Source of the DNA: a virus
Strand: one strand, 5' to 3'
Length of the DNA: 64,000 nucleotides
IMG/VR virus record: IMGVR_UViG_3300017752_002639
Location: 7,919-71,918 of that record
This document shows positions 2,316-61,348 of this stretch, one piece after another (position 1 is the stretch's first letter; every line of letters starts with the position of its first letter). The notes under the pieces were generated by a model. The model worked only from the letters and a program-made list of their open reading frames with translations. It made no database searches and had not been told where the DNA came from. Made by a program: the position numbers and the translations under genes.

Positions 2316-2317
2316 GG

Positions 2318-2323
2318 TAAATA
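2318..2323 (+). promoter_or_regulatory. T4-type late promoter core TAAATA, 4 nt before the gp25-like ATG
   Basis: GGTAAATACGATATG with no Shine-Dalgarno; the same motif recurs before other structural genes. Confidence 0.55.
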
Positions 2324-2327
2324 CGAT

Positions 2328-2777: not shown

Positions 2778-2800
2778 TATACGCACTTTTTAATATCTGC

Positions 2801-2806
2801 TAAATA
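2801..2806 (+). promoter_or_regulatory. Late promoter core TAAATA upstream of the gp6-like gene
   Basis: Intergenic TAAATA followed by an AAGGA ribosome-binding site and ATG 2830. Confidence 0.5.
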
Positions 2807-2829
2807 TTAGTATAAACAAGGAAACGCTA

Positions 2830-21400: not shown

Positions 21401-22106
21401 TACAGTATTTCCATTAGGTGGACAGTTAGCAACAGTTAACGGCACAGGATTTAGACCTACTGTACAAGCACGTATGCAAAACACAGCAGGCGAAGTAATA
21501 GACTTAGCAACTACATATGTAAACGAAACGCAATTTACATTTACAACAGTTGGCATGCCAGTTGGTGCATATGACTTAGTAGTTTATAATGATGTAGAAA
21601 CTGTACCGTTACTAAGACCTGCAACAAGTTATGTTGCACCTAAAGCACTTAGGTATGTACAAGTACTATTACCGTTTGCACCAACACCAAATCCAATTAG
21701 TGCAACAGTATGGAACGAAACTAATCAAACAGGTTGGTATAAAGCACCATATGCTAGTGGTGGAATACCAGATGAATACTGGGAAGCACAAGATATTGAA
21801 ATATTTGCTAATGGATTACGTCTAAGAAAGAATCCTTTGAAAACATATGATGTTACTAAAGGACAATTTAGCCCAGCAGGCGATGTTTGGTTAGAAGCAC
21901 AATATGCTGTAAACAAAAATGTTGGAGCGTATGTACGCCTAACTGAGCCGCCAGAGCCTAATACTAAGCTAACTATAGTAAGACGCCTTGGTAAAATATG
22001 GAACGAAGTAATAGATTCAACTACAGGGGCAACAAAACCGCTAGGATCATCAGAAACTGAGGTAGCAACGTTCTTGCGTGGAAAGAGTATTGATCTACCG
22101 CGATAA
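6414..22106 (+). CDS. Giant 5,230-aa baseplate/tail adhesin-like structural protein
   Basis: One uninterrupted ORF after the gp6-like gene (gp7-like position). Contains FG-GAP-like repeats (FGQSLAIDG, FGEGVAISADG, FGQEFDV, FGGELDFDG), about five CBM5/12-like 'W/Y..Y..G..V....Y' modules and an IPT/TIG-like segment near the C-terminus. Confidence 0.75.
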   Translation: MAQDKDQNEFPLPVGGNQKRTSSYHLPKYFRTDKNQKFLQSTLDQLIQPGVAEKINGFVGRKTAKAFVKDDNYVDDVTAERRDYQLEPVSVIKDDLDNVEFYADYRDYMNQIANFSGIVDDHSKNNKQEFYTWQPHIDWDKFTNFREYYWLPNGPQTVVIPGEDKEITSTYTVNLAEALGDYSYLFTPDGLTNNPVLKLYRGVKYVFEVNTPGLPLTFKTARTLEEEFLITDGISAQSVETGTIELVLGPDAPSEIFYVAENDINVGGVIKVANASEATTIDVDAELIGKKSYTSRDGWTLTNGLKVRFEGEVQPAKYQNSEWYVEGVGDKIQLVSDIDVEVSFPVGIDLVVPFDGEEGFDRLPFGTATGYPRDKDYITINRASPDGNFWSRYNRWYHKDVIELAASINSLDTQIDETQRANRPIIEFNSGLKLYNFGTKSKQVIDLIDDYTTDAFSTIEGSLGYNIDSEQLSEGMRVMFLADTDPLVNGKIFEVKFIKFKGSGTQGQISLVVTDDSEPSPNENVLVTKGTLYAGSLWYYDGTKWNRAQEKTSVNQPPLFDLFDVNGYSFSDLVQYPATTFRGTKIFGYKEGTGTADSVLGFPLTYRSINNVGDILFNFDYNSDNFEYQLNDETYSIESRSGYLRKFNANNQYSVVGRYEKADSLSKQEVILQYVNDGTRITYPINCYNQSAFITDLKTTIFVNDKIQIEGTDYTLVDSADKIKSVNFLYTIASDANIIIKTCTDTPKNENGYYEIAHNLERNPLNENVSGFTLGEVTEHVSTITENIPGYVGTFPGPGNLRDIANQSQYGRKFIKNSSPLNLSMFSLLDRESNIVNAMRYSRKEYSKFKRLFLETAETLGYEGPVKQHVDIIIKEITKDKTNNMPFYFSDMIAHGPSITTRITVEDVDAQFFALNTAFTLEKLNTSAVTVYLNENQLVHNKDYTFNSDGYLKITATKEFNDIIEINEYETTNGSYIPPTPTKLGLYPLYEPALYTDDTYSSSPTMIQGHDGSIIKAYDDFRDNLILELERRIFNNIKIKYDASILDINSYVTGNFRDNGFTRQQIYAPMITDFVQWLTLVDEDYTTHKYFNRLDSFSFNYKNMRGPNNTVLPGWWRGAYNYMYDTDRPHTHPWEMLGFSIQPTWWEEQYGPAPYTAENKLLWEDIEKGIIREPNKPFIINKKYARAGLYNYLPVDIDGNLLSPSNANLPINYDSTGIDDSFVFGDNGPVESAWRRSSDYPFAILTSWMINNSPALLSAGFDRSRQVRNTLGQLIYTESGDHLTLDKIVFPNTPNDSKQVLTSGLVNYVADYMASNITASFKQYGTRIQSIKNMLGFKLGGFTDKSKFKLILDSRTPLNKGNVFIPEENYNIILNTSSAIKLVNYSGVIIEKQTGGFIVRGYSEETPAFKYHRALPTAKDVYVNVGGVSEPYTEWQAQQTYIEGKNVQFQNVFYKVIKTHTASANFDAEKFAKIPQIPISGGSDAYFRDQFDTRNVELMPYGTELKTIQEVVDFLLGYQSFLKLEGFNFEYYDGDESVISDWKNSCREFMFWSTQNWAEGAIISLSPVADEINFSTEYSVVDNIFDNFFGYSLLKSDGTKLTDNFTRISRTDPNKLQVQPRNTSDGVYAIRLPIVQKEHIILIDNLSVFGDVIYQPSTGYRQERIKVLGYKTSDWDGSLNIPGFIYNEAKVKQWAQWTDYDIGALIKYKEFYYSSNAQIAGSETFDDSHWTRLSSKPESSMTTNFEYKTNQFTDFYSLDTDNFDVDQQQLAQHLIGYQKRQYLENIINDEVSQYKFYQGMIQDKGTRNSLDKLFDVLSSADKESLDFYEEWAIKQGQYGASEGFDELEIELDELKYRAEPQPIHLSNDDTANTDLVYRIKDFEIFKKPNNYTTNVLPTVDKVPNFTKTPGFVHLDDVSLSVGKYNDILDQQFTSIPKDSYVWVSTQKQSWNVLQHKSTQWKALSVKGNATAISTGTDEANQSTVTLSNAPTDIKAGDIIGLYDLIVTDKTTDDSTFPIATQTTEPVEGFYKVLAVALNQVVIETKEVIEDIISCNGIITKFIPVRVADFQSANVLSQNGVDKGTRIWIDEDENGDWIVLENTQPFNLLQKIPAEDTGVNNNFGQSLAIDGRNVTMALASPTADGNGKIFTYTRGGQNQNFQFTQLIEPADNISSGGMSFGEGVAISADGKYIVAGSPDAGQVKSKFKGNYSTTADYENTEVVKYGDSLWEAVVDIDGAKSEQPFGSFGSIIEVIQDNNITSGEIVFNSLLAGNYPFTDVPDETTGHILVRAPKDAYVATGPGDTVFMDWYLTTSANQDAPTTPRQPFNGTFATITEEFLERGLPIVKKVDAVLYINSVSTIPGDTLQVDTVGASGYVSYTYSEGGRATVYVTGSVGTWPVSGSLFLETGEFVGEFQRVAPVEESVDTSNDLGGYWWFDTDDQYTVAPTNSDEGRALAIYNVIPAGKADSGGTGGNVIDNKNDDIFAGETSQHSYIRTLSYVGTPGAYGQLDPFESDLFVMRAPKTLTDSVTVGDTIGVEVYRLPAYADGSFVDISTIGLSHLQTNKDHELVALWDGYIDFELEEGDNFNRFEPKVGQFVRDRVTGATAKVEFYQRNSIYATIFVSNVVGTWQLGSKYGEASDIEMLGNPNDPDLTYRVTRTLGDIKATALGNDTYNIGKLCVFRLGGVVSPVPDTVERGDFDFHAASDIIDAEYIIYKDTQILGLPTNPNIPDQINFDWKERFSLPVDANGVANDYDNFGFFTVYARESISTFTPVGSFIFPETINGLGIGSKIKMAKRNDLYKTFIGCRGNGTTANPGKIFFVNKGTDEEGIEYNWELAKDKRFKGEFAPERNYYVNDIVFLDGEFYTAKTNVQGNPTTPDDPEAQFNILDWNLSTNDNIRSVDFLGYVPNDTQYVPGNDSSLQLSTTDLIEFGQEFDVTDNGEVLAVVAKYANEPSRVIVYRNQNDNYQKSQEIVDPRYGDTEYKGNWAINTAYAVNDIVLWGESDVDVYNPSVTEVLREYICVTAHTSGTEIGSDVNKWIEFDRTEFAKTVSISQDGKLIAIGAPNGDTTIAESGKIYIYKQVNSTFELSQTLVSANPIRGEYFGGELDFDGNTLFASAFNSASDDVTNFDGFKNRLYPGSTTPGKQYLLDTDSEIVSPTTFDNKFTTFQNKIASNGVVYVYEKINDTLVFGQTLDYNVADAKFFGRNITAQNNHIYMSLPKFNNADGKQGLVLDFNKDISNKVWKEHRTPSLPVDVSKIKRVMLYDKEKNVIVTNLDYIAVSQGKIAGTADEEIRYKTFFDPATYNTGINTDIRINELTNWGEKQVGQVWWDLTDAKFYDTTQGSIIYKTNNNNKIAPGGSIDVYEWVESTVTPEQWDKISSQPEGERNGITGTSKYGNNGYVEKRIYDKIAQKFDKLYYFWVKGKTNAPNVENRSMSIQTITSLIEDPNGSGYKFVSFYDNGEMSIHNCKNLVNNKDVVLSIQYWTFSEPGSNIHNQYQILTEGLGTSVPYAEIENKWIDSLVGYDKQSRPVPDTNLSPRERYGILNKPRQGWFINRTEALKQLVERVNNVFIDNLIEEEKNLVKLQDTDPAPSQTLGLFDVTVDTEIDLQFIGVARATTAQITPVVENGKIVRLEINNPGRGYRVAPSYTIEGSGSGAEFEFTLDNLGKITTATVIEQGNNYGSNTFITVRPFAALVTADSAINGKWALFNRNATTSNWIRINSQAYDVTKFWNYVDWYATGYNAFTEIDYVITQSYELESLDDKFGDVVKILNIGGAGWLLLEKINDLDTTDYTVNYKTIGKQNGTIQLSQNLYNLQNSRVGFDTQTFDTQFFDSQPVEEIRIIMQALKQDILTDDLQDEYNKLFFAGLRYVFAEQGYVDWAFKTSFVKAKHNVGNLTQRVTFKNDSLESYEDYIQEVKPYTTTIREYLSTYDNVERSSSVITDFDSPPSYDNTSTTIETNNIRLINGLLTGDSGDRFANYPERYWLENASYEIIDIEISDAGEGYVSAPKIEIEGNAKAEASLGPGGKISSVKVLNSGSNYLTSPTITINGAKNDNGRDARLSAVLGKSKVRTMHTKIKFDRVSGTFFITQLNELETFSATGSKTEFTLKWPMDMRTNTVEVTVDGELVLNSEYSYQNVYDADTKLNYGKISFVNPPANTLTVQVTYKKAIDLLDAQDRVNLFYNPTSGQIGNDISQLMTGVDYGGVEVKSFEFGSPPGWDTGDWYNGAWDIYDDLFEEELFQTDGSTLVFTLSKPLENGVKYNVYINGIRVDDEEYDGTSSVNNKNAFMETLVGDGIVDTLTIENENGYRNFLETQTDGQDNPPAQIIKIIKSTSDGARLIDSESYDTDISGGDLAYTTAKGIKAEEINIDGDGFVTETTSSGPEETIPGQVLDTLDITVFERPVGGSSLIQTTSYTGDGVTTTFNLRQRPYSFESVILKVNGAVPATNTYKIDYKNSEIIFYVAPAVDDKLDIISMGVSGNNILDYDEFTTDGSTQEFLTNVDYSDNVHAYVTVNGEELPFQLLESDESYAIANRCVIRFVQAPIADKLIQFAIFDNSIESFSKVSLEEITADGSSIAYQLNKVPLQQDPIAYHTIIMIDNKVLNAGYSEQFIVEESQQEFKLKVWQVPIASVSGNEIEVFLNGRKLQFLQEWTYEGAGSFNPAVNADAQPGSTVILNRGVAVAGDELKVHIITSGEYQFGYYDSSDEWVDTAGGDSTPAVVYFDEAPAENSTIRVYQFTNHDSQGIDRQNYDIVQRTAMTVGSEGYNEYRLLTNGLFNLRSEAVSTDYVWISLNGRWLVPTADYVLLENKKTIKLITTVYKDDVVDVIHFSNPPVSIKYGWRQFKDILNKNVYKRLDKDGFYQLAEDLNWYDRTITVIDKDNGNLPTPTKSKPGIVFIGKERIEYLRKEGNVLKQLRRGTAGTSIAQIHSSGTELVNQSLETSMPYKDTEEVVINFSGNYVDMSTKYDNDGGITVDGIAYNFNNNTVFPLGGQLATVNGTGFRPTVQARMQNTAGEVIDLATTYVNETQFTFTTVGMPVGAYDLVVYNDVETVPLLRPATSYVAPKALRYVQVLLPFAPTPNPISATVWNETNQTGWYKAPYASGGIPDEYWEAQDIEIFANGLRLRKNPLKTYDVTKGQFSPAGDVWLEAQYAVNKNVGAYVRLTEPPEPNTKLTIVRRLGKIWNEVIDSTTGATKPLGSSETEVATFLRGKSIDLPR

Positions 22107-22109
22107 ATA
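22103..22109 (+). promoter_or_regulatory. Late promoter ATAAATA overlapping the stop codon of the giant gene
   Basis: CGATAAATAC, then AGGA and ATG 22128. Confidence 0.6.
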
Positions 22110-26754: not shown

Positions 26755-26761
26755 ATAAATA
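26755..26761 (+). promoter_or_regulatory. Late promoter ATAAATA
   Basis: Intergenic GATAAATAC, then AGGGG and ATG 26789. Confidence 0.6.
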
Positions 26762-26788: not shown

Positions 26789-28312
26789 ATGGCATATACA
26801 ATTGATACATATAGTAATAGTACATCTTGGAAAATTGAAGATGGGACTATTGATCAAACCACCGATTTAAAGCTAGTTGGTAAAAACTATGCTGGATACG
26901 GTGAGATACAAAACGAAAACTTTGTTTTCTTACTAGAAAACTTTGCAGGGCAGGCAGAGCCGCCACGTAAAATACAAGGTCAAATATGGTTTGACACTGG
27001 TAATAGTAAATTAAAGTTTTATGACGGAATTAAATGGCGCACAACAGGTGGCGCAGAAGTTAGCACAACAGTTCCAACAGGTCTTAAAGAAGGTGACTTT
27101 TGGTGGGATCAAAATAACGAGCAACTTTATACATACAATGGCGGAGACTTTGTACTTATCGGACCCCAAAGTGCAGGATCAGGCCAGACACAAATTGTAA
27201 GTCGCTCATTACGTGATACAGGTGGTACGACAAGAGGCGTTATCACAGCAGTTGTAAATGATGAAACAGTATTTGTTACTAGTTCACAAGACTTTACAAT
27301 TGATACGGCTGATGTTGATAGTAACATTCCAGGATTTGATAGAATACGTCAAGGTATTACACTAAAGAACACTTTAAATAGTTCCGGCGGTGTTACATCA
27401 GGCGATTGGAGAATTGTTGGTACAGCAACAAATGCTGAGAAATTAGGCGGAGCGGCAGCCAGTGAGTATGTAAAAAATCAAACAGCAAACTTTGCAGGAC
27501 TTGCACGTTTTAGTGACACAGGTTTACAAGTTGGCGATGACGGTGACTTGAAACTTAAAGTTGAATTAGACAACAAAGCAGTTATTGCAAACGAAAACGG
27601 ATTACAAATTGAATTCCGTGCTAAAAATTCATTAGGTACTATACTAAACCCAATGAGAATATTTGCAGATGCAGTTATTCCAGGGTTCCAAGTTGGTACA
27701 GAATCAGCACCAGGTGGGCCAGTAGTTGGTACATCAACATTAGGTTCTGTAGATTATCCGTGGCCAAACGTATTTGCAAACAATGTAACTGGTTTAGCAA
27801 GTATAGCTTCATCGTTAAACGTAGGTGCATACGATCCAGTTAATCCATTAGCAAATGCAAAATATCCATCAACAGCAGACGCGGCAAATACTATTGCAGT
27901 TAGAGATGCCGCAGGCGATATTTACGCAAATAAATTTCAAGGTGTTGCAACTGAAGCTCAATATGCTGACTTAGCAGAAAAATATACTACTGATAAAGAA
28001 TATCCAGTAGGTACAGCAATGTGTGTAGGCGGAGATGCTGAAACAACAGCGGCTAAGACAAGTAGTATTAGTATTGGTGTTATATCAGAAGCTCCTGCGT
28101 ACTTAATGAACAAAGATTTAGAAGGGCAAGCAATTGGTCTTAAAGGTCGTGTTCCAGTAAGAGTAAAAGGCCCAGTGAAAAAAGGTCAACCAGTGTATGC
28201 ATGGGAAGATGGTGTTTGTTCTACAGTAGCAACTACATCAATCGTAGGTGTTGCACTAGTTACTAATGACGCTGAAGAAGAGAAATTAGTTGAGTGCGTT
28301 TTAAAGGTATAA
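26789..28312 (+). CDS. Tail fibre with a probable C-terminal intramolecular-chaperone/autocleavage domain
   Basis: Shared N-terminal module; C-terminal 'QYADLAEKY...GVIS..PAYLMN...GRVPVRV.G' resembles peptidase G2/IMC domains. Confidence 0.7.
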   Translation: MAYTIDTYSNSTSWKIEDGTIDQTTDLKLVGKNYAGYGEIQNENFVFLLENFAGQAEPPRKIQGQIWFDTGNSKLKFYDGIKWRTTGGAEVSTTVPTGLKEGDFWWDQNNEQLYTYNGGDFVLIGPQSAGSGQTQIVSRSLRDTGGTTRGVITAVVNDETVFVTSSQDFTIDTADVDSNIPGFDRIRQGITLKNTLNSSGGVTSGDWRIVGTATNAEKLGGAAASEYVKNQTANFAGLARFSDTGLQVGDDGDLKLKVELDNKAVIANENGLQIEFRAKNSLGTILNPMRIFADAVIPGFQVGTESAPGGPVVGTSTLGSVDYPWPNVFANNVTGLASIASSLNVGAYDPVNPLANAKYPSTADAANTIAVRDAAGDIYANKFQGVATEAQYADLAEKYTTDKEYPVGTAMCVGGDAETTAAKTSSISIGVISEAPAYLMNKDLEGQAIGLKGRVPVRVKGPVKKGQPVYAWEDGVCSTVATTSIVGVALVTNDAEEEKLVECVLKV

Positions 28313-28315
28313 ATA
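28308..28315 (+). promoter_or_regulatory. Exact T4 late promoter consensus TATAAATA
   Basis: Overlaps the stop codon at 28310-28312; AGGA and ATG 28345 follow. Confidence 0.7.
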
Positions 28316-42043: not shown

Positions 42044-42055
42044 AGGCTGTATAAT
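42027..42055 (+). promoter_or_regulatory. Perfect sigma70 consensus promoter; predicted +1 at or next to ATG 42062
   Basis: TTGACA (42027-32), 17 nt, TATAAT (42050-55), 6 nt, ATG. Confidence 0.75.
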
Positions 42056-42061
42056 ATATAA

Positions 42062-48776: not shown

Positions 48777-49977
48777 ACTAGCCCTTGGTCCTAGCATGTG
48801 TACTGCTAAATGGACTAACAGTACAATACATCTCGGCATTGGCAAAACACACAGTTGTCATCATCCACATCCTCATACAATACCCCTGCACGAAATAGAA
48901 AACAATCCGTCAGCAATACACAATACACAACATAAAAAACAAGTTAGAAAGCAGATGCTTGAAGGTACATGTCCTAGTGAATGTAACTATTGTTGGAATG
49001 CTGAGTCTAACGGTACCGTAGGCGATCGTGTACTAATGAGTAAAAAAGATGGCTTGTTAGAATTATTAAAAATTAAAAACACAGCATGGGATCAAGATTA
49101 CGATCCAACTTATTTAGAAGTATCCTTTTCAAACGTGTGTAACTTTGCGTGTGCATATTGCGGTCCTGAATACAGTAGCAAATGGCATAGTGAAATAAAG
49201 CAAAAGTCTTATCCTAACAACTATAACGGAATACACTTAGAACAAATATTAGACAAAGATCATAATCCTTACATAGAAGCCTTTTGGAATTACTTGCCTA
49301 CTATATATAATAAATTACGTGTACTGCGTATTACAGGCGGTGAGCCTTTAATGAGTAGACATACTGAAAAACTTATAAACTATATTATAAAAAATCCAAA
49401 CAAAAACCTTACAGTAATTATCAACAGTAATTTAGGAATTACAGATAAACTGTTTAACAAGCATATAAACTTTTTAGTTGATGCAAAGTCTTGCGTTAAA
49501 AAGATTGAAATTGCAACTAGTGGTGAAGGATATGGTGCTAAAGCAGAATACGTTAGAGATGGATTAGATTATAACAAGTGGAGAACCAACTGCGACAGAG
49601 TAGCAAAAGATTTGAATTTATCTATTATGTCAGCTTATAATATTTTTAGTGTAACAACGTTTGATAAATTTTTAGAAGATGTTAAAGATATAAAAAATGT
49701 AACACTTAGTGTTAGTGCAGTAAGAGATCCAAGTTTTATGAGTGCATCAGTTATGCCTAAAGAATGGATGAGTCATTTACATAGGCAACAAAAATACATT
49801 GCTAAACACTTTTCAAAAGAAACACAACAGCGTTTTGAACAAGTCGTAGCTCATGCATCTGTTCCTAATAATAATTTAAACGAACTAGTTGCATTTGTGA
49901 AAGAATACGACTTACGCCGTAAAAAATCATTTATTAAAGTTTTTCCTGAATATGAGTTTATAACTCAACAGTTGTAA
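48766..49977 (+). CDS. Radical SAM enzyme 10, N-terminal twitch-like domain (SCHHP type)
   Basis: CNFACAYC, ITGGEP; MCTAKW...SCHHP...CNYCW. Confidence 0.88.
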   Translation: MLTKLALGPSMCTAKWTNSTIHLGIGKTHSCHHPHPHTIPLHEIENNPSAIHNTQHKKQVRKQMLEGTCPSECNYCWNAESNGTVGDRVLMSKKDGLLELLKIKNTAWDQDYDPTYLEVSFSNVCNFACAYCGPEYSSKWHSEIKQKSYPNNYNGIHLEQILDKDHNPYIEAFWNYLPTIYNKLRVLRITGGEPLMSRHTEKLINYIIKNPNKNLTVIINSNLGITDKLFNKHINFLVDAKSCVKKIEIATSGEGYGAKAEYVRDGLDYNKWRTNCDRVAKDLNLSIMSAYNIFSVTTFDKFLEDVKDIKNVTLSVSAVRDPSFMSASVMPKEWMSHLHRQQKYIAKHFSKETQQRFEQVVAHASVPNNNLNELVAFVKEYDLRRKKSFIKVFPEYEFITQQL

Positions 49978-51040
49978 TTGTATTCCAGGTTTGTTTGAAA
50001 ACATCAAAGTTTTTTGCTTTAGGAATACACATGCCGCAACCACATCTTGCGTTGGGGCAAACAATCGCTTTGTTTACGTTTATTTCATTTAAAATTTTCT
50101 CACTGTTATTTAGATTGCCAATAGCACCTATAGTTCCGTCTTTACGTGCTTGGCATGTTTGGTGGTGATACACATCACCTGTTTCCTGATCTATATGTAA
50201 GAAGAACCAATCTACCATACAGTTCCAACCTTTAAATTTGTTTTCAACTAATTTTACTGGTTGCCAATTATCTTCAACTAGTCCTTCTAAGCAACGCCCG
50301 CCACAACATTTGCGACCAACGTCTGTACCTTCAGTAGGACGTTTTGCTTTGTCTACTATACCAACTTCATTCCAAAACCATTCTTGTTGTTCCTCAGTAT
50401 ACTCATGACTTGTTCTGCGCATAACTCCATCGGAGTCTTCGAACCATCCTTTAAATGCAACAGTACCATCTCCAATTGGAACAGGGTTATATGCAATACC
50501 ATGTTCTTTAAAAAATGCACATACTTCTTTTGCTTCTTCAAAGTAATCACAATGTAACATAACATTAATTTGTAACCAAATACCACGTTCTTTTACCTTT
50601 AGTGCATTTTGTAGTACTCTATCTTTTAACTTTTGATGTGCTTCAGCATGCCAGCTAATAGTGATGCCGTCAATGTATTCAGCAATTTTATCAATGTCTT
50701 TTTCAGGCCATGTACCGTTTGTAGTAAGTCCTACATTATAACCTTCGTGTTCTTTAATGTATTTTACTATATCCCAAAACTGTGGATTAACAGTAGGCTC
50801 TCCTCCTGTGAAATCAATATTAACATGTTGACGATTTTTCTTATGTGAGTCATACTTGTTAGTATATGATTGTATAAAATTAAATGTATCTTTTAACTTG
50901 TCTAGTTTAGCATGTGGGCTAGTATTGTTATGTCTACTTGCTTCACAGTAAGTACAGTCGTAATTACAACGTCTTCCTAGATCCCAAGTAACCATCATTG
51001 GTTCAGGATTAGTTAAATTTATTGCTGTAGTTTGTATCAT
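49958..51040 (-). CDS. Radical SAM enzyme 11 (short type with extra Cys insert; paralog of 47724)
   Basis: CNYDCTYC, FTGGEP; GRKCCG...FKGWNC...CPNARCGCGMC. Confidence 0.87.
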   Translation of the reverse strand: MIQTTAINLTNPEPMMVTWDLGRRCNYDCTYCEASRHNNTSPHAKLDKLKDTFNFIQSYTNKYDSHKKNRQHVNIDFTGGEPTVNPQFWDIVKYIKEHEGYNVGLTTNGTWPEKDIDKIAEYIDGITISWHAEAHQKLKDRVLQNALKVKERGIWLQINVMLHCDYFEEAKEVCAFFKEHGIAYNPVPIGDGTVAFKGWFEDSDGVMRRTSHEYTEEQQEWFWNEVGIVDKAKRPTEGTDVGRKCCGGRCLEGLVEDNWQPVKLVENKFKGWNCMVDWFFLHIDQETGDVYHHQTCQARKDGTIGAIGNLNNSEKILNEINVNKAIVCPNARCGCGMCIPKAKNFDVFKQTWNTITTVEL

Positions 51041-51951
51041 TCTTTAACCTTTGTAAGAGGAATATCTGCGGCACAAGTACACCATTTACGTGTACATATA
51101 ATTGCTTGTTCTGGTATTTCAAAGTCACCTTGATATATGTTTCCTAAACTACCGCCTACTCTACACGTAGCACGATGAACATCACCGTCCCAATTAATCA
51201 TTAGGCTTTCTAATCCTGCATTACATTTCCAACCTTCGAATTGATTCCTGTGTGTTTTTATCAAGTCGTTTGCATGTATTAGTTCTTGATCGTTTACAAT
51301 AACATTAGGTTTAGCAGTTGCAACAGAGTCTAATAACCATTTTAAATCTTTAGAATCATATTTCAAATCATCAAACCAATCACGGTTCTCTGCTTCAGTC
51401 CAACGTATGCGTCTAACTACATAAGGTATGTTATGACTGTCAAATAATGTAGCACAGCGTTTTACTCTATCCATGTGTGCATGGTGTGCCATTAAATTAA
51501 CTTGAAAAGGAATTTGTGTGTTGGCGTCATTTAGTTGTGTCCAAAGTAACACATTTTCAGCACAGCGTTCCCAGTTTTTATCATCTTCAACATGCAAACT
51601 AAACACATAATGATCGACTGGTAGCTTGTCATAGAATGAAGGAGATAATGTACCATTGGTAGTAATGTTTAACCAGTCTAGTCTTTGTTTAATGTGTTCA
51701 CAAATTTCTAATATGTTAGGATGCACACAAGGCTCGCCACCTGTAAGACTTACACGAACTGGCTTACCTATTTCATACAATGCATCAACTGCATCTAACA
51801 TTACCTTAACATTGGTATGTGGACTAAAATTATCGTGTATTTCGGCAGGACAATACGTGCAATCTAAGTTACACCTTTTGCCTATATTCCATTCTACTTT
51901 AACTGAGTCTTGATGATCCCAGCGACTTGTTACGCTATACATAAGGAGCAA
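51037..51951 (-). CDS. Radical SAM enzyme 12 (short type)
   Basis: CNLDCTYC, LTGGEP; FEGWKC...ATC...CTRKWCTC. Confidence 0.87.
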   Translation of the reverse strand: MLLMYSVTSRWDHQDSVKVEWNIGKRCNLDCTYCPAEIHDNFSPHTNVKVMLDAVDALYEIGKPVRVSLTGGEPCVHPNILEICEHIKQRLDWLNITTNGTLSPSFYDKLPVDHYVFSLHVEDDKNWERCAENVLLWTQLNDANTQIPFQVNLMAHHAHMDRVKRCATLFDSHNIPYVVRRIRWTEAENRDWFDDLKYDSKDLKWLLDSVATAKPNVIVNDQELIHANDLIKTHRNQFEGWKCNAGLESLMINWDGDVHRATCRVGGSLGNIYQGDFEIPEQAIICTRKWCTCAADIPLTKVKE

Positions 51952-53200
51952 ACTCTGGGTTAGATGTAAGGAAGTCTTGATTACGTGTTTTATCTAAACG
52001 CTTGTTAAACTCTATACAGTCTTGCCAATGTGTTTTGTACATACACTTTGCTTCTAAGAAATTTATGTTGTCTTGTATTTGTTGTAGAGTTACTGTCTTT
52101 AGTAACTCGTGTTCTTTTACTAAAGGATAATCTAACACAGTTTCTTTCATTGCTTCTAATTTAGCAATAACTTGTTCCTTTAGTTCAGGCGGCAGTACTT
52201 GTGCTGATAGCGACATAGGATAATTTACTCTATGTGAATAAAATATAATTCCCATTGTATTAATAAAGTAATCAATTACTTTGTCTATTTGCATAATGTT
52301 GTTTGCTTGTACAGTAAATGCACCTACTACTCTACTTACATTAGGAAAGCTCTTAAACACTTTAATGTTTTCTTCTATTTCAGCAAACTTACCATTGCCT
52401 CTAATGTATTCATATGTGTCGTGTATGCCGTCTATGCTTACGTTTACAGCAATGCTTTTAAACTTAGGCCAATAGTCGTGTATTGTTCTTCCGCCTTTAA
52501 TACCTAGCGTAGTACCGTTTGTAGCGTACTTTAGTTCTATGTTGTCACCATACTCTGCAAGTTTATCTAGTATCTTATAATGGTATGGATCCATTAGCGG
52601 CTCACCACCTGCAAATTCTACACGTCTAAAGAACGGTAGTAGCTTTTCAAAACTTGCCCACCAGTTATCTGAGTTATCAAACGGTCCAATATATTGCCCT
52701 GGTTTGTCTACTAGTGCATCAACAGTTGGTATAAGATAATTGTTTTCTTTCTTGTAAAATTCTGTTACTTGATCCCAATCTTTCCAGCTTGTACTGTCCA
52801 AAGGATTACACATACGACACTTTAAATTACACAAGTTATTGAGCTTAATTTCCATTGTAGGAAACTCAAAAGGCATGCTGTAATCGTCGTCTAAAGCGTC
52901 TAATGCATCAGGGTATAAGTTGACCCTAGCTTCAGGTATTACCCCTGCTGTATGACGCTGTCGTAAGCTCTGTACACCCTGATCTTCAAGGTCAAAGCAC
53001 GGTTTACATACATCAGGACGTTCGTCATTTAGTACTTGTCTACGCACTTCTTTCATAGCATCGTTGTTCCATGCTTCTTCCAAAGTTTCTTTTTGTATCC
53101 AACCAATAGGTTGACTGCGACAGCATACTTTGATAGCACCATCTTCTCTTGTAGCCAATCCTGTAAACGGATGCATACAAAATGTACAACTCTTATGCAT
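51935..53200 (-). CDS. Radical SAM enzyme 13, N-terminal twitch domain (CC type)
   Basis: CNLKCRMC, FAGGEP; FCMHPF...VCC...CKPC. Confidence 0.88.
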   Translation of the reverse strand: MHKSCTFCMHPFTGLATREDGAIKVCCRSQPIGWIQKETLEEAWNNDAMKEVRRQVLNDERPDVCKPCFDLEDQGVQSLRQRHTAGVIPEARVNLYPDALDALDDDYSMPFEFPTMEIKLNNLCNLKCRMCNPLDSTSWKDWDQVTEFYKKENNYLIPTVDALVDKPGQYIGPFDNSDNWWASFEKLLPFFRRVEFAGGEPLMDPYHYKILDKLAEYGDNIELKYATNGTTLGIKGGRTIHDYWPKFKSIAVNVSIDGIHDTYEYIRGNGKFAEIEENIKVFKSFPNVSRVVGAFTVQANNIMQIDKVIDYFINTMGIIFYSHRVNYPMSLSAQVLPPELKEQVIAKLEAMKETVLDYPLVKEHELLKTVTLQQIQDNINFLEAKCMYKTHWQDCIEFNKRLDKTRNQDFLTSNPEFAPYV

Positions 53201-53873
53201 TATCTATTCCCCATTGTCGTTCCTTACACCAAAAACATTCTCCGCACTGTGGTACAAACATGCCTGGCTTATATGTAGTATAATCTAAATTATCAAACTC
53301 GCCTTCGCAACTACGAGTAATATTTAACAACTCTTTGATGCCGTTATCGTAATATTGTTTTATGATCCAGTTCTTCTTAGTATACACGAAAGGATGACAA
53401 ATGTCAACTCCATTATGAACAAAATGTGGAGCAATATGTCCTTCGTCACGTTCTGCAACTTTGCCAGGAATATCAATATCTGGATTCATATTTACTCCTG
53501 CATAAAGTGCATCTAAATTATGCTTGTGTGCAATATACTCGTTATGTGAACGTAGTATAATTCTATTGCCCGACTTCATTTTTCCGTACTCATCTTTAAT
53601 AAGATATTCTGTAGGCTCTTCTAATTCAGGCGGGACTAAATTTTTATGTACATAAAACTTATGATCAAAATTATCTTTAAACCATGCAACTACATTGTCA
53701 GCAATATGTTCTGCCCACGGTCGTGTTTTCCATAAACGTATTTGTATATTAAAATGTATTTCTGTAGTTGAACTTACGTTTTTACATATTAAATATGCAA
53801 GCAATGCACTGTCAGCACCGCCACTAAGACTAATACCTATACGCCGCCAATCAGAATTCAAGTATAGTTCCAT
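53193..53873 (-). CDS. QueC-like PP-loop ATP pyrophosphatase (7-cyano-7-deazaguanine synthase-like)
   Basis: 'ISLSGGADS' PP-loop and C-terminal 'TRSC...CGECFWCKER' zinc site. Confidence 0.7.
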   Translation of the reverse strand: MELYLNSDWRRIGISLSGGADSALLAYLICKNVSSTTEIHFNIQIRLWKTRPWAEHIADNVVAWFKDNFDHKFYVHKNLVPPELEEPTEYLIKDEYGKMKSGNRIILRSHNEYIAHKHNLDALYAGVNMNPDIDIPGKVAERDEGHIAPHFVHNGVDICHPFVYTKKNWIIKQYYDNGIKELLNITRSCEGEFDNLDYTTYKPGMFVPQCGECFWCKERQWGIDNA

Positions 53874-53878
53874 ACAAG

Positions 53879-53895
53879 TATTTACTCGGTAAATA
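53879..53895. promoter_or_regulatory. Divergent back-to-back late promoters in a perfect inverted repeat
   Basis: GTATTTAC-TCG-GTAAATAC; each TAAATA lies exactly 5 nt before its ATG (53873 minus, 53901 plus). Confidence 0.75.
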
Positions 53896-53900
53896 CGTAT

Positions 53901-54563
53901 ATGCTAGTTGAAACTGAACATACTGTATCTATCAATGACATTGACGCAATAGACTTAACAACTATTGATAAAATGAAAACGCCAATAAATGAGCCATCGG
54001 GATCATTCTTTTATGATGAATGGAATATAAAAGAAGAATATAAAGATACTCCTTGGGCTACATTATTAAACACATTACCATTTGCAGTGGGCGAAGCTAG
54101 AGTAATATCTTTAGAAAGTAAAACTTGCTATACTAAACATACTGACATTGATGATAGATACCATTTAAATATTTTTGGTGACGAAGGTTATCTTATTGAT
54201 TTACAAGATTCACATATGTATAAAACAGAGTGTGATGGTAAATGGTATGTAATGGATGCTAGTAAAGCCCACACTGCCGCAAATTTTGGTCAGTATCGTC
54301 GTGTGCAGTTAGTAGTTAGAAAACTATTACAACGTGTAAATTTAAAAGATCCTATTGATGTGTCAATTATTCCAGGCGGCGATAATCCTAGATATACATT
54401 TGACAACACACTAAGTCCTTGGTTAAACAAAAAACTTAAAGATAAAACTATTACTGATTTTGAAAGATCTGATAGTGGTGTAAATTTTAAAATGGAACGT
54501 GTATTGCTAGACCAATTTGAAAATATACTACCTAAAGACTTTAATGCTAGTCTATATAGATAG
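53901..54563 (+). CDS. 2OG-Fe(II) oxygenase-like protein (Asp/Asn beta-hydroxylase-like) with C-terminal extension
   Basis: 'KHTDIDDRYH...AHTAAN...RVQLV' gives an HxD...H facial triad. Confidence 0.6.
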   Translation: MLVETEHTVSINDIDAIDLTTIDKMKTPINEPSGSFFYDEWNIKEEYKDTPWATLLNTLPFAVGEARVISLESKTCYTKHTDIDDRYHLNIFGDEGYLIDLQDSHMYKTECDGKWYVMDASKAHTAANFGQYRRVQLVVRKLLQRVNLKDPIDVSIIPGGDNPRYTFDNTLSPWLNKKLKDKTITDFERSDSGVNFKMERVLLDQFENILPKDFNASLYR

Positions 54564-55239
54564 CCTTTGCTTTTTCCATTGTATCTGTGCTAAAGTTATT
54601 TTTAAAACTATCAAAACATAAGCCCTGTAGTTTGTCTAACGGTTGAACAGCATTAACATCAATACCCATGCTTTCCATTGCAGGTATTAATACACTTTGC
54701 CTATCTTCACTTATATGACTCATAACGTCCATTGGCGTAAATCCTTGTTCTTCTGAGCTATATGTAAAAAAGTAATTTATGCTTTTTAATGTTCCGTCAA
54801 CTATAAAGTAACTACTTGGATGCATACTAAACTTGTACAATCCTAAATCCTTGTGTGCTTGTATAATTTCAAGCATTTGATCTTCCCAGTCGGGTAATAC
54901 ATGCGAATAGTCAGTACCTTTACATCCTGCTAGTTCCCACATGTCAGGACCGTCTATTTCTAAGTAGACCTTTCGAAACTCATAGTCAATTTCAAATGCT
55001 GGTACGTGTTGCGGATACTCCTCACGCATTAGTCTAAGATATTTTATTTCACGTTCAAACTTTTCATCCATCAAGTCTACATCAACAACTTGATTATGTC
55101 CTCCGTGATAACCTTCATCGTTATGATACCATTGACAAAACTGTTGTTTGTCATCACTAATAAGACTAGTGTATATTAGGTTGTTTCTACATAATCCTTT
55201 TTCAGGAACATTATTATAGTAGTAATTCATTTTTTTCAT
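54547..55239 (-). CDS. Degenerate protein-kinase-like fold protein
   Basis: 'FEREIKYLR...LGLYKFSMHPSSYFIVDGTLKSINYF' has kinase-like spacing but non-canonical catalytic-loop and DFG positions. Confidence 0.4.
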   Translation of the reverse strand: MKKMNYYYNNVPEKGLCRNNLIYTSLISDDKQQFCQWYHNDEGYHGGHNQVVDVDLMDEKFEREIKYLRLMREEYPQHVPAFEIDYEFRKVYLEIDGPDMWELAGCKGTDYSHVLPDWEDQMLEIIQAHKDLGLYKFSMHPSSYFIVDGTLKSINYFFTYSSEEQGFTPMDVMSHISEDRQSVLIPAMESMGIDVNAVQPLDKLQGLCFDSFKNNFSTDTMEKAKAIYID

Positions 55240-56479
55240 TTCCAGGTTGATAATGGTGTATGTTTGTAACTGCTATTAAATCTTTTACTGCATCTACTTC
55301 TTCTCTTTCATACATTATAGATGTAAATGGGTATACATTGTATTGTAACATAGTACTAGTATGTAGTATAGAGCCTTTTGGTAACTTATTAAATAGTGTT
55401 TGCGGCTCTTTAATAAGATCAATATGAACAAATTCTTTATCCATATCTTTAAATTTTTGCCAGTTATTGAATATTAACGATGATGTATCTTTATTAAATT
55501 TTTCAGCATCATTAATATCAACTTGTGAATTTGGTTCTGTGTTTAAATTATTTTCATTACAGTATGCTAGTGCAAATTCTAAATAGTTTTCGCCGTTCCA
55601 GTTATTGTACAAGTATTGTTTAAAGTCTAAGTTATTTTTATTAATATCATAAAATATTATTTTTGAAGCATTGTTGTAATAGGCTGTAATTTCACCTAAG
55701 AATCCTGTTGCTGGTACTGCAACAGTATGTGTGTCATAGTTTTGTATAGTGGGATCCCAACTCCATATATTTACAGAATTATATTTTCTATAATCTAAAA
55801 CAGCATTGATGTATAATTCTTGAGAGTCGTCAAGTCCAGGAAGTATTTTAAACTCTTTATGTGCTTGTTCAAATACATCTGTAGACTTTTTTGGATATAA
55901 AAATCCACGTACCGGTAATGGATTGTTAGCATTATACCGCCAATTATTATCAAAGTTACGTACTCGTAACCCTTGTTTTAATGCTTTTAGAATTAGTTTA
56001 CCGCCCCATTCTACTTGTTGTTCTTTAGAACTTTTATCAAGATATACTTCTACTGGAGCATAGTCGCCGTGCATACTTTTCTTAGACCTAGTAACAGTAC
56101 GATCGTATATAGTTCCTGGAGTTAAATCTAAGTCTCTAACTAAGTCTGATCTTACAATTATAAACTGTTCATGTAGTCTTGGTAAGTCATCACCTTCATA
56201 CTGTAATAGATTTGCAAGTATACCATACGTATCATCTATTTTAATTATTTTATTCCACAGATGATCTCGGTCAGTTATAATAGTACCAGCAGTAACTATT
56301 ATAAGAAATTCTGTAGTATCTGCGTAGTTCTTAATTTCATCGTAACTAGCAACCTCATGAATATCTGCGTGTTCGACATTCACAAGATTAATAAAAGATC
56401 TTGTAACCTCTAACATTTTATTGTTTAACCAAGAGCTTTTAGAAAAGCTCGGTACTATAATGAAAGATACCTTTTGCAT
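55214..56479 (-). CDS. Hypothetical protein (N-terminus possibly GT-like)
   Basis: 421-aa ORF inside the island; no firm motif. Confidence 0.6.
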   Translation of the reverse strand: MQKVSFIIVPSFSKSSWLNNKMLEVTRSFINLVNVEHADIHEVASYDEIKNYADTTEFLIIVTAGTIITDRDHLWNKIIKIDDTYGILANLLQYEGDDLPRLHEQFIIVRSDLVRDLDLTPGTIYDRTVTRSKKSMHGDYAPVEVYLDKSSKEQQVEWGGKLILKALKQGLRVRNFDNNWRYNANNPLPVRGFLYPKKSTDVFEQAHKEFKILPGLDDSQELYINAVLDYRKYNSVNIWSWDPTIQNYDTHTVAVPATGFLGEITAYYNNASKIIFYDINKNNLDFKQYLYNNWNGENYLEFALAYCNENNLNTEPNSQVDINDAEKFNKDTSSLIFNNWQKFKDMDKEFVHIDLIKEPQTLFNKLPKGSILHTSTMLQYNVYPFTSIMYEREEVDAVKDLIAVTNIHHYQPGNEKNELLL

Positions 56480-57092
56480 CTTGTTCCTTTAATGATCTCT
56501 TTACTAACTTTAAATATTCTGGTGTACTATCGTAATGATGTATAATCAAATGATATCTATCTTCTTGGCTAGGATTAACTACACTATGCTCGTAACTTAG
56601 ATTCATTGCATACACATCGCCTGGATTAAATTCTAATGTTTCTCCGTCTTGCCATTTCCATACACAGTCTTTAGGATTAGTTATAGCAATATTAATAGCA
56701 CCTAGTACACTATGTTCTGTATCTGTATGTGGTTCAATAACACCACCTGCTTCTAATAGCATTACTCTTGTACGACCATAACTACTGCTTGGGTATACTT
56801 CTTGTAACCATTTTTTAGTTACAGGACATAGTTCTGCTATATCTGTCCATTGCATATCAGGTGCGGCGGCTCTTGCATCTTTATAATTGTATACGTTCCA
56901 TGCATACGGTTCTGTACTAGATTTACCTACTATTGGTAAACTTGCCCAGCCCTGTGTTTTATATGTTGACCTATACTCTACAAATTTATTCTTTAAATTA
57001 ATAATTTCATTATACGCTTCTTTGTGCGGAAAATTAATATTTAATTTGAGATATTTTAGATCGCTTACTAGATACTCACGTCCTTCAAACAT
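56439..57092 (-). CDS. 2OG-Fe(II) oxygenase (Asp/Asn beta-hydroxylase-like)
   Basis: 'GGVIEPHTD...EHSVVN...DRYHLIIH'. Confidence 0.75.
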   Translation of the reverse strand: MFEGREYLVSDLKYLKLNINFPHKEAYNEIINLKNKFVEYRSTYKTQGWASLPIVGKSSTEPYAWNVYNYKDARAAAPDMQWTDIAELCPVTKKWLQEVYPSSSYGRTRVMLLEAGGVIEPHTDTEHSVLGAINIAITNPKDCVWKWQDGETLEFNPGDVYAMNLSYEHSVVNPSQEDRYHLIIHHYDSTPEYLKLVKRSLKEQDAKGIFHYSTELF

Positions 57093-57097
57093 AAAAG

Positions 57098-57113
57098 TAT
57101 TTATTGGTAAATA
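57098..57113. promoter_or_regulatory. Second divergent late-promoter pair
   Basis: GTATTTATTGGTAAATAT; each TAAATA lies 5 nt before its ATG (57092 minus, 57119 plus). Confidence 0.72.
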
Positions 57114-57118
57114 TTTGC

Positions 57119-57928
57119 ATGATTAAAGGAATTGGCGGAAAGCCCTATATAAACTTAGACCCCTACTTAGATGTAGATGGATTTAAAGAAATGCATCCTG
57201 AAATTTGTAAAGGGTTTGCTCAAGCTCGTGATTATGCAAAAGAAGGAACATGGATGGAACCAGGTTTTAAATTTGATGACATGAGTTATATTTTAAATTG
57301 GAAACCTATATACAAAGCATTTGCAGAGTATCAAGCACTTCCAGAAGACCATCCAATTAAATTAAATGGTAATGAAATATTCCCACAAGATTTTAAAGAT
57401 TATAAACAACGTAACTTGTTTACACGTTACCTAAAAGGTGTAATGGGAGCAAATGATCCGTACATTTACTACTTTCTTTGGAACGAAGGTGATTGGGAAG
57501 AACGCAATGCAGAACGTGAACGCACAGAAGAACAAAAATATTTCCCCAGTGTTGTGAAATGGATTGAAAATTTAGTAGAAGAAAACATTATTGATCGTAT
57601 TGGCAGAGTTATATTTTTTCATTGCGAGCATGATGGACATGCCTTTGAGCATAGAGACTTAGACGGAAAGGACGGAGATGATCAAGGATATAGTAATCAC
57701 CGTAATGAATTTATACATATACGCTATCGCACAAAAAGAGGATTTTATATATGGGATCCAGAGTCCCAAAACAAAGTTTACATAAACTCTAATGCCGCAT
57801 TTTGGAATGATGAAGATTGGCATGGTGGTGAAGGTTCTAAAGAACAAGAATACGGACTAAGAATAGACTGTACATTTACAGATGAATTTAGAAAAGTATT
57901 AGGTTTAGATAAGTTAGAAAGTTACTAA
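57119..57928 (+). CDS. 2OG-Fe(II) oxygenase-like protein
   Basis: 'AFEHRD...WHGG...GLRID'. ATG 57119 preferred over TTG 57104 because of promoter geometry. Confidence 0.5.
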   Translation: MIKGIGGKPYINLDPYLDVDGFKEMHPEICKGFAQARDYAKEGTWMEPGFKFDDMSYILNWKPIYKAFAEYQALPEDHPIKLNGNEIFPQDFKDYKQRNLFTRYLKGVMGANDPYIYYFLWNEGDWEERNAERERTEEQKYFPSVVKWIENLVEENIIDRIGRVIFFHCEHDGHAFEHRDLDGKDGDDQGYSNHRNEFIHIRYRTKRGFYIWDPESQNKVYINSNAAFWNDEDWHGGEGSKEQEYGLRIDCTFTDEFRKVLGLDKLESY

Positions 57929-58426
57929 ATGGATTTTGTTGGAAACTACAAAGAAATTATACCTAATGGACTTATTGATTTTTTATTAGAAAATAAAGGA
58001 CAGCCTCGTCCTAACAGTATATCTAAAGAACATATAGACGACTACGAAAAATACTCTAAAGGTAAAAGTGTAGGTTATGATTTAACCGCGGCATACTGGC
58101 ATATATTTGAAGAAAATGATATTGCACCTTTAGTAATAAATGCACCTTGGGTAAAAGGAAAACAGCATTGGTGGATTACTAAAATGATGCCTGGTGATAT
58201 TATGCCTATGCATGAAGATCCTACAACATTAGGTAATGATTGTAAACGTTACTGGATGCCGTTACAAGACTACGAATCAGGTCATATTTTTATTATTAAA
58301 GACAAACTAATAACAGATTATAGTGCTGGAGATGTATTTGTGTATGATGTTGCACAAGACAATCACGGTGCGGCTAACATAGGGTTTACACCAAGATTTG
58401 TTTTACAAGTTGCAGAATTTTTTTAG
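57929..58426 (+). CDS. 2OG-Fe(II) oxygenase-like protein
   Basis: 'PGDIMPMHED...NHGAANIG..PRFVLQV'. Confidence 0.65.
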   Translation: MDFVGNYKEIIPNGLIDFLLENKGQPRPNSISKEHIDDYEKYSKGKSVGYDLTAAYWHIFEENDIAPLVINAPWVKGKQHWWITKMMPGDIMPMHEDPTTLGNDCKRYWMPLQDYESGHIFIIKDKLITDYSAGDVFVYDVAQDNHGAANIGFTPRFVLQVAEFF

Positions 58427-59010
58427 TTCCAACGAACTTCGTATTCACTAATATAACTTTTACATGATATTGCAAAATTAACTACCTCAAGTAATTCTTC
58501 AGCACTAGTATACGGCTCGTCTTCACGTATAGTTTTATACATAATATTACCAAGTTGTAATAGTATACTTTGCGGCATTGCATAATCATTTTTGTAACCT
58601 TTATAATGCAACCGCTTATAATCTTCATGTGTTTTCTTTAGTAGTAATTTTTCTGCAATATAATTGCTTTTTTCTCTAGGTCTATCAAAGAAGCTATTTT
58701 GATTTATACTTACTATATCAGGTACATCTAGTTCTGTTACTAAACTACCAAAACTAATAATCTTTTTAGGTGTTTGATATTGTTGTCTATTCCAAAAGTC
58801 CCAAACGTATGCTAGTAAACTAGATTGTAATGTGCCAACAGATGCTAAGTTAAAGAATATGTCTGCATCAACTAAGTGTTCTATAAGGCGGTCAACATCG
58901 TCTGGTAAAGTATATCCGTGTGTTCGATCAACAGGAACCCAATCCATATCTATGTTTTCCATTAGGATTGCGCCTGATTGAGAGGAAGCTCCTGTAATTA
59001 TAGCTTTCAT
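58423..59010 (-). CDS. Short-chain dehydrogenase/reductase (atypical)
   Basis: 'KAIITGASSQSG', 'IISFGS' and YxxxK in 'YIAEK'. Confidence 0.65.
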   Translation of the reverse strand: MKAIITGASSQSGAILMENIDMDWVPVDRTHGYTLPDDVDRLIEHLVDADIFFNLASVGTLQSSLLAYVWDFWNRQQYQTPKKIISFGSLVTELDVPDIVSINQNSFFDRPREKSNYIAEKLLLKKTHEDYKRLHYKGYKNDYAMPQSILLQLGNIMYKTIREDEPYTSAEELLEVVNFAISCKSYISEYEVRWN

Positions 59011-59011
59011 A

Positions 59012-59557
59012 TTATCCCCAAATATTAAACAAGTACTTTGGTACTAGTCCTGCGTTTGCACCTGCATGCCAACTTGTACGATCTGGCCATTTCCAAACAG
59101 CACCTTGTGGTTGTTTATACAAACATGTATCACCGACTATAATAGTATGACCATCCTCTGGACCACTTACATGACAATGATATCTTTCTAGTTGTTTCCC
59201 TGCATTTAGTGTTGCTTCGTCATCAGTAATATCCCAATGCCATGGTGCAACATCACCAGGTAGTACTCTGCTTATCCAAGCATTTGTATATTCAGTCATG
59301 CCTACATAATCCATAAACTGATGTATAAGTTCTTCATCAAAATTTGTTCCAGGCAAAAACATATCCCAAGCCGCATTGCCGCCTTCTGACTTTTGTTTAT
59401 ATCCTGCTTCTCTTAATGGTCCTACTACTTCTTCAACACCAGGAACACTATCTCCTACATCATGTCTTGGGCCAATGTAAGCCGCGGCTTGATTCTCTAT
59501 ATCTTTAACAACATTTTGCCAATTAATAGTATCACATATACCAATGTACTCAGCCAT
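59012..59557 (-). CDS. 2OG-Fe(II) oxygenase-like protein (paralog of 57929)
   Basis: 'PGDVAPWHWD...WHAGANAG..PKYLF'. Confidence 0.65.
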   Translation of the reverse strand: MAEYIGICDTINWQNVVKDIENQAAAYIGPRHDVGDSVPGVEEVVGPLREAGYKQKSEGGNAAWDMFLPGTNFDEELIHQFMDYVGMTEYTNAWISRVLPGDVAPWHWDITDDEATLNAGKQLERYHCHVSGPEDGHTIIVGDTCLYKQPQGAVWKWPDRTSWHAGANAGLVPKYLFNIWG

Positions 59558-60101
59558 TTAAAAACTCCTCAGGCCAAAATTCGTTTTCGTATTCTAATGT
59601 TTTCTTATAAGTTTCTTTAACGTCTAACATATTATCTTTAAATACAAATCTATTGCTGTCATTAATAATATCTCCAATTAAACTAAACGGTATTTCGTCT
59701 TCTAGAGTAGTACATGCATAACAGTCCATAAGTTTTACTTGGCCATCTATAACAAAAAATGTCCATGGGTATGCGTTTATTTTGTATATGTTGTTACTTA
59801 CTAAGTCTTGTAGTATAGCAGTTACTTGTTCTTTGTAGTCTGTTGGAGCAGTATTATGTTCTAGTGCATGGTTTAAACTAATCCCCCAATCAAACGTTAT
59901 TAGAAGTTCACTGTCATTAGTAGTAATATTAGGAGCATAGTATTTGCCAGCAACAAGTGATAGTCCGTTTAGTTCTCTATCGTACCAGAACCTATCGTTA
60001 AATTGCATGTAATAGTAGTTGTCGTCATAGAAGGCATTATAGACTGCATTAGCAGGACCTAGTATACCATTTTTATATTTTTGAAATATTCGTTTAGTCA
60101 T
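59550..60101 (-). CDS. Degenerate kinase-like protein (paralog of 54547)
   Basis: 'WYDRELNGL...NIYKINAYPWTFFVIDGQVKLMDCY'. Confidence 0.4.
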   Translation of the reverse strand: MTKRIFQKYKNGILGPANAVYNAFYDDNYYYMQFNDRFWYDRELNGLSLVAGKYYAPNITTNDSELLITFDWGISLNHALEHNTAPTDYKEQVTAILQDLVSNNIYKINAYPWTFFVIDGQVKLMDCYACTTLEDEIPFSLIGDIINDSNRFVFKDNMLDVKETYKKTLEYENEFWPEEFLNG

Positions 60102-60104
60102 AAA

Positions 60105-60144
60105 AAAACACCTGTATTGTATTGTATTTAACTACAGGTGTTTT
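60105..60144 (-). promoter_or_regulatory. 12-bp perfect hairpin with a late-promoter core in its loop; also terminator-like (U7 tail on the minus strand)
   Basis: Arms AAAACACCTGTA / TACAGGTGTTTT around a 16-nt loop that reads TAAATA on the minus strand (60130-60125); the 3' arm carries AGGTG 7 nt before ATG 60101. Confidence 0.65.
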
Positions 60145-61341: not shown

Positions 61342-61348
61342 TATTTAT
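61342..61348 (-). promoter_or_regulatory. Late promoter ATAAATA for the 61312 gene
   Basis: Minus strand GATAAATAC...CAGGAG...ATG. Confidence 0.6.

Follow-up and report, generated by a model that had tools for sequence, protein, structure and literature searches.

Two intergenic gaps in the DNA of a virus each hold a pair of outward-facing TAAATA boxes, one on either strand, and each box lies exactly 5 nucleotides (nt) before the ATG of its own gene. The DNA concerned, here called the window, is a stretch of 64,000 nt that spans positions 7919-71918 of the linear virus record IMGVR_UViG_3300017752_002639 (G000; 79,098 bp, 35% G+C). The four boxes are probably late promoters of the type read by gp55 of phage T4, and as such would give leaderless late messenger RNAs (mRNAs) for operons encoding a QueC-like protein with radical S-adenosylmethionine (SAM) enzymes and for oxygenase operons. 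According to this proposal, in which we infer from the sequence the exact 5' ends, the late timing, the leaderless translation and the competition between neighbouring promoters, host RNA polymerase together with the phage's own gp55-like sigma factor would read the four boxes and start at the sixth base after each of them, which is the A of the start codon. The resulting mRNAs would have neither a 5' leader nor a Shine-Dalgarno (SD) sequence. Leaderless translation would concern the head gene of each unit alone, namely the QueC-like gene, two genes for oxygenases and one hypothetical gene; downstream, where genes overlap or abut, translation is presumably coupled.

The two sites and their genes

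Site 1 (53,871-53,903) separates the open reading frames (ORFs) 53193-53873 (-) and 53901-54563 (+), whose starts are separated by the 27 nt ACAAG-TATTTA-CTCGG-TAAATA-CGTAT. Site 2 (57,090-57,121) separates ORFs 56439-57092 (-) and 57119-57928 (+), with 26 nt between the starts. The boxes are as follows:

53879..53884, minus strand: TAAATA box of the QueC-like gene (context GAGTAAATAC; spacer CTTGT; ATG 53873-53871)
53890..53895, plus strand: TAAATA box (context CGGTAAATAC; spacer CGTAT; ATG 53901)
57098..57103, minus strand: TAAATA box (context CAATAAATAC; spacer CTTTT; ATG 57092-57090)
57108..57113, plus strand: TAAATA box (context TGGTAAATAT; spacer TTTGC; ATG 57119)
2318..2323, plus strand: TAAATA box of the gp25-like baseplate wedge gene (2328-2777), N4 to ATG 2328

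No SD-like run is found in the 27-nt or the 26-nt gap for any of the four focal genes. Coordinates, spacers and inspection of the gaps thus bear out the first-pass annotation of this DNA, which had described four outward boxes 5 nt before an ATG without SD and a TAAATA-N4-ATG arrangement at the gp25-like gene, where the box falls inside the 12-nt gap after a gp5-like gene. The start codons are firm, since the PP-loop of the QueC-like protein (SGGADS) lies at residues 16-21, with no further Met before residue 99, and since the gp25-like protein has a single Met. The units that the four boxes would serve are:

49958..53873, minus strand: predicted late, leaderless-headed operon; QueC-like PP-loop gene 53193-53873, then three radical-SAM genes (Pfam, ORF map)
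51935-53200, 51037-51942 and 49958-51040, minus strand: the overlapping radical-SAM genes (Pfam)
53901..54563, plus strand: Asp/Arg-hydroxylase-like 2-oxoglutarate (2OG)-Fe(II) oxygenase gene, predicted leaderless (Pfam PF05118)
54547..57092, minus strand: predicted late, leaderless-headed operon; oxygenase gene 56439-57092 and hypothetical genes 55214-56479 and 54547-55239
57119..58426, plus strand: predicted late, leaderless-headed two-gene unit; hypothetical genes 57119-57928 and 57929-58426

The product of gene 56439-57092 is the second of two Asp/Arg-hydroxylase-like 2OG oxygenases at the focal sites.

The layout is conserved. From IMG/VR, 60 loci encoding a QueC-like homologue were retrieved, and four long relatives were taken whole (G001, 281 kb; G002-G004, 94-105 kb). 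QueC-like homologues down to 44% identity retain the distance between box and ATG with different letters in the spacer, and oxygenase orthologues of 53901-54563 in the relatives retain N4 or N5. The layout of box 57098-57103 recurs in loci L020 and L047 and that of box 57108-57113 in locus L047. In loci L006, L019, L026 and L020, TAAGTA replaces TAAATA at the 5-nt spacing before the QueC-like gene or its partner, and may be a tolerated promoter variant.

Placement at gene starts and link to late promoters

TAAATA-N5-ATG occurs five times in the window against 2.8 expected, a count reached by 13 of 100 shuffles and not significant alone, and this speaks for a chance co-occurrence in AT-rich intergenic DNA. 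Four of the five matches, however, coincide with gene starts; with 70 starts, 0.036 such cases would be expected (Poisson P ~7e-8). The fifth, at 23897-23910 (+), is out of frame within gene 22746-24839 and looks like chance. The first-pass annotation had also called for a histogram of the distances from TAAATA to ATG. Drawn up for every ATG opening at least 80 codons, it shows a peak only one base wide at 5 nt, flanked by a shoulder at 4 nt, in G000, in its four relatives and in the cultured SAR11 myophage HTVC008M (NC_020484), over a background of 0.4-1.1 per distance in these records (Poisson P 1e-3 to 7e-15). T4 and the cultured phage PA5oct, which are equally AT-rich, differ from G000 in having no peak at this distance. 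The counts at 4 and 5 nt together are:

G000: 5
G001: 22
G002: 7
G003: 10
G004: 9
HTVC008M: 13, every one at a coding sequence (CDS) start annotated by the depositors
T4: 2, background level
PA5oct: 3, background level

In P-SSM2 the raw TAAATA-ATG pattern was no higher than its control. When every hexamer was scanned at every offset at the 692 gene starts of G000-G004, the top positional hexamer was TAAATA at 5 nt (32 against 0.25 expected), which outranks every SD hexamer, whereas the top hexamers in T4 and PA5oct are all SD. Placement on gene starts in G000 alone, and its recurrence in five further records at P values as low as 7e-15, refute chance, to which we attach virtually no probability: the fused layout, as we call a box 4-5 nt from its ATG, is not due to chance.

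The same TAAATA box stands 18-35 nt before SD-led virion genes and other genes of the window, whose leaders carry AGGA or GGAG, in agreement with the earlier description of the tail genes. These boxes serve as an internal comparison:

2801..2806, plus strand: leadered late box of the gp6-like baseplate gene (CTAAATAT, 23 nt, SD AAGGAAA)
22104..22109, plus strand: leadered late box (GATAAATAC, 18 nt, SD AGGAAA)
26756..26761, plus strand: leadered late box of a tail-fibre-like gene (27 nt, SD AGGGG)
28310..28315, plus strand: leadered late box (TATAAATA, 29 nt, SD AGGAAG)
61342..61347, minus strand: leadered late box of gene 60164-61312 (GATAAATAC, 29 nt, SD AGGAG)

In the five records the flanks G-A-TAAATA-C/T are common to leadered and fused boxes, the core TAAATA being invariant by construction, and an SD-like tetramer precedes 4 of 47 fused starts (8.5%) as against 56 of 68 leadered ones (82%). 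About 40% of the box-associated starts are fused to the ATG. In G001 the fused layout is found on virion genes (gp6-like wedge, tail tube, structural proteins), and in HTVC008M it occurs at the depositors' CDS starts of the tape measure, gp2, tail-tube cap, gp25-like and tail completion genes.

The box corresponds to the late promoter of T4, TATAAATA at -13 to -6, which gp55 recognises together with gp33 and the gp45 clamp and for which the variants CTAAATA and ATAAATA have been published in T4 relatives (PMC1524935). A gp55-like sigma factor, whose presence the first-pass annotation had proposed to check, is encoded on the same contig at positions 4362-5192 (-), immediately left of the window; the protein matches the profiles phrog_12791 (2e-76, over its full length) and phrog_234, the T4 gp55 family (1.4e-22), and the gene was found in G001 and G002 as well. 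It follows gp46-like and gp47-like genes in the order known from T4 (contig 1531-5192, locus L064). Its own promoter reads TTGACT-N17-TATAAT, and the late sigma factor itself therefore looks early or middle. Finally, divergent operon heads have more than their share of the fused layout (16% against 4.7%, P=3e-5), and since such a head needs a promoter, this enrichment fits a box that acts as one.

Predicted transcription starts and competing readings

If the geometry of T4 applies, with the box at -13 to -6 (PMC1524935), TAAATA ends at -6, the five spacer bases take up -5 to -1 and the A of ATG becomes +1. In the N5 set the ATG is preceded by T (81% of cases) or C (16%), and T or C at -1 followed by A at +1 is the usual pyrimidine/purine context of start sites, which fits a start on the A of ATG. 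Among start codons 4 or 5 nt from a box, 66 are ATG, one is TTG and none is GTG, as compared with 6% GTG or TTG over all called genes, in a test of low power. The first 36 nt of the fused ORFs are also less structured than those of other genes of equal GC (mean -1.17 against -2.56 kcal/mol, P=4e-6). Taken with the histogram peak and the gp55-like gene, the T4 geometry supports the interpretation of the first-pass annotation that these promoters would yield leaderless late mRNAs.

Several points weigh against this interpretation. About one-third of the fused set has N4 instead of N5 and lacks the pyrimidine at -1; in these cases the canonical +1 falls on the T of ATG, so that transcription would have to start a base closer to the box or leave a leader of 1 nt. 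The host would have to be able to translate leaderless mRNA, an ability that we infer. Gene calls were simple longest-ORF calls, and the records G000-G004 are incomplete (21-80%; ~21% for G000 by CheckV). The profile of the gp33 co-activator (phrog_254) had no match in G000-G004, although it was silent in the control genomes too and the protein is small and fast-diverging, and that of the gp45 clamp (phrog_223) had none in the same incomplete records, where the clamp may be of another family. The boxes are therefore filed as gp55-type, and the full clamp-coupled mechanism of T4 is not claimed. Likewise, the profile of ribosomal protein bS21 (PF01165) had no match in G000-G004, and no link to a phage bS21 is claimed for the lineage.

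The N4 cases, with no pyrimidine at -1, would also suit promoters that are late but whose messages are not truly leaderless, either because transcription starts a few bases off the A or because longer transcripts from upstream are translated by SD-independent, A/U-rich initiation. A further argument for such messages is that in 26 of the 47 fused cases the preceding gene runs in the same direction, and in 12 of these the gap is at most 15 nt, so that read-through transcripts must exist there too. At the focal sites, however, the DNA upstream of each gene is the coding region of the opposite gene, and a scan of 53,000-58,600 for sigma70-like promoters gave no excess (26 against 29.7 expected) and no convincing alternative promoter for the four focal genes. 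Together with the one-base sharpness of the N5 peak and the pyrimidine-A context, which fit a constraint on the start site, this makes such an outcome rather unlikely. We consider it still less probable, indeed improbable, that TAAATA at -11 to -6 is no promoter at all but a translation signal, such as a non-SD element bound by the ribosome or by S1. The fixed, short distance between motif and start does resemble that of a ribosome-binding site, and SD hexamers peak at similar distances. Yet the identical box with the same flanks stands at a variable 18-44 nt before genes that have their own SD, and its enrichment at divergent heads calls for a promoter. The 3' end of 16S ribosomal RNA is not known to hold a complement to UAAAUA. 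The box moreover matches the published gp55 box (PMC1524935), and the sigma gene is present.

The palindrome invites another reading, in which the inverted repeat GTATTTAC-N3-GTAAATAC is the operator of a dimeric regulator of both divergent units. Site 1 is indeed a perfect 8+3+8 inverted repeat, with a hairpin of -5.9 kcal/mol by RNA energy parameters. Site 2, by contrast, is symmetric in its TATTTA/TAAATA cores only, and in orthologous pairs of QueC-like and oxygenase genes the boxes are separated by 4, 5, 17-19 or 31-32 nt, a range too wide for any one dimer; each box is still 4-5 nt from its own ATG, and the spacer letters differ throughout. Single boxes at the same spacing also precede many unpaired genes. 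As the spacing between the boxes is not conserved, the operator was rejected as a very improbable explanation. Thus the earlier description of palindromic back-to-back promoters holds for the perfect repeat of site 1, but not for site 2 beyond its cores, nor for orthologues, in which the gap ranges over 4-32 nt. With the distance from box to ATG kept and that between boxes drifting, the conserved relation is that of box to ATG, and the palindrome is incidental. The back-to-back layout would then be two gp55-type promoters abutting in a gap of 26-27 nt, with predicted starts 27-28 bp apart, so that two polymerases would exclude each other and the directions of transcription would alternate.

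Two further features of the window concern start codons and boxes. At 42027-42064 (+) the ATG of gene 42062-42739 comes 6 nt after TTGACA-N17-TATAAT, a sigma70-type promoter close to consensus, and an early-type promoter may therefore also yield a leaderless message. At 60102-60144 (-) a perfect 12-bp hairpin with a U-run abuts the ATG of gene 59550-60101; the hairpin, whose loop carries a TAAATA box (60125-60130), may serve as a terminator or may mask the start on long transcripts.

Affiliation, precedents and meaning

Proteins of the G000 window match PA5oct in 25 of 70 cases, HTVC008M in 8 of 70 and T4 in 5 of 70, so that gene content gives no support to an affiliation with the pelagimyophages. 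The order of the gp25-like gene, the gp6-like gene (1194 amino acids, aa) and a giant gene (5230 aa) matches that of Atu_ph07 and PA5oct. The giant gene is a single ORF of 5230 codons (window 6414-22106, +) directly after the gp6-like gene, and corresponds by synteny to the giant structural proteins of the virion in Atu_ph07 (~4449 aa) and PA5oct (~3857 aa). Gene order and gene content together indicate that the contig is a fragment of an uncultured marine giant myophage of the PA5oct/Atu_ph07 type. Scans of the window for Rfam families and tRNAs gave no hit, and a blastn search with a 5.5-kb region against cultured phages gave no match.

PA5oct and Atu_ph07 share with G000 the baseplate module, the giant virion protein and a T4-like box before the gp25-like gene, but in both of them this box is followed by an SD leader of 20-29 nt. 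The omics study of PA5oct reports TATAATA/TTGAC promoters only. Within the group, the gp6-like gene of G001 (L070:11044-14472) has TAAATA-N5-ATG, and its orthologue in the window (2830-6414) has a box and a 23-nt SD leader. The fused and leadered architectures thus appear, from such sequence comparisons, to be interchangeable over evolutionary time.

T4 has the same core box, a sigma factor of the gp55 family and boxes before virion genes, and the leadered class of the window, with boxes 18-35 nt before SD-led genes, has its counterpart there. It differs in that none of its 251 called genes has a box 4-5 nt before the ATG, in that its histogram peaks at 26-29 nt, and in the bases at -13/-12, which are T/A in T4 and G/A here. 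The layout of G000 is found again in HTVC008M, in which 12 annotated CDS starts have TAAATA-N5-ATG. This phage (locus L122) even has a back-to-back pair at 18916 (-)/18943 (+), with two outward boxes each 5 nt from an ATG in a 26-nt gap (18917-18942) between divergent gp2-like and head-closure genes that are unrelated to the focal genes. Its gp25-like gene has N5, as against N4 here, and it belongs to a separate, Kyanoviridae-like lineage with a genome of 147 kb. Late-promoter prediction in pelagimyophages has reportedly been unsuccessful (PMC7029224), and a literature search on HTVC008M found neither a description of the fused layout nor a transcriptome with mapped 5' ends.

Leaderless phage messages as such have precedents. 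The lambda cI mRNA from P_RM starts on the A of AUG and is translated without SD; it concerns one regulatory gene and a sigma70 promoter, whereas a whole late class and a phage-sigma promoter would be involved here. The Thermus phages phiYS40 and Lalka27a have mostly leaderless transcripts, late ones included (bioRxiv 10.64898/2026.04.20.719267). As predicted here, their messages begin on the A or G of the start codon and arise from late promoters specific to the phage, but there the 5' ends have been mapped, and the promoter is a TAGGGT -10 element with C at -25 in a host of a different phylum. Literature searches for leaderless messages with TATAAATA or in T4-like phages, cyanophages and jumbo phages yielded no precedent for this promoter type. 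What would be new is the combination of T4-type late promoters with predicted leaderless mRNAs, a layout that we found described in no paper.

Since the closest cultured relatives are leadered while an unrelated SAR11 phage is fused, the trait hints at host or niche and not at lineage. It is quite possible, if on the whole doubtful, that two unrelated lineages of marine myophages, the PA5oct/Atu_ph07-like giant and HTVC008M, have independently moved many gp55-type late promoters onto start codons, with a late programme that, core virion genes included, would be largely leaderless as an adaptation linked to host or niche. Such an adaptation might serve efficient 70S initiation in streamlined hosts or SD-independent late translation during takeover. 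With 5' ends as predicted, the fused layout would account for the failed prediction of late promoters in pelagimyophages noted above, improve the annotation of start codons and operons across thousands of uncultured phage contigs, and imply late timing for the QueC/radical-SAM and oxygenase tailoring operons. HTVC008M on Pelagibacter ubique would offer a cultured system for leaderless translation in a streamlined marine bacterium. Should 5' ends map as predicted, the fusion of promoter to start codon would be a widespread natural variant of T4-type late transcription, a textbook system, and a whole class of late genes would need no ribosome-binding sites for translation in phages abundant at sea.

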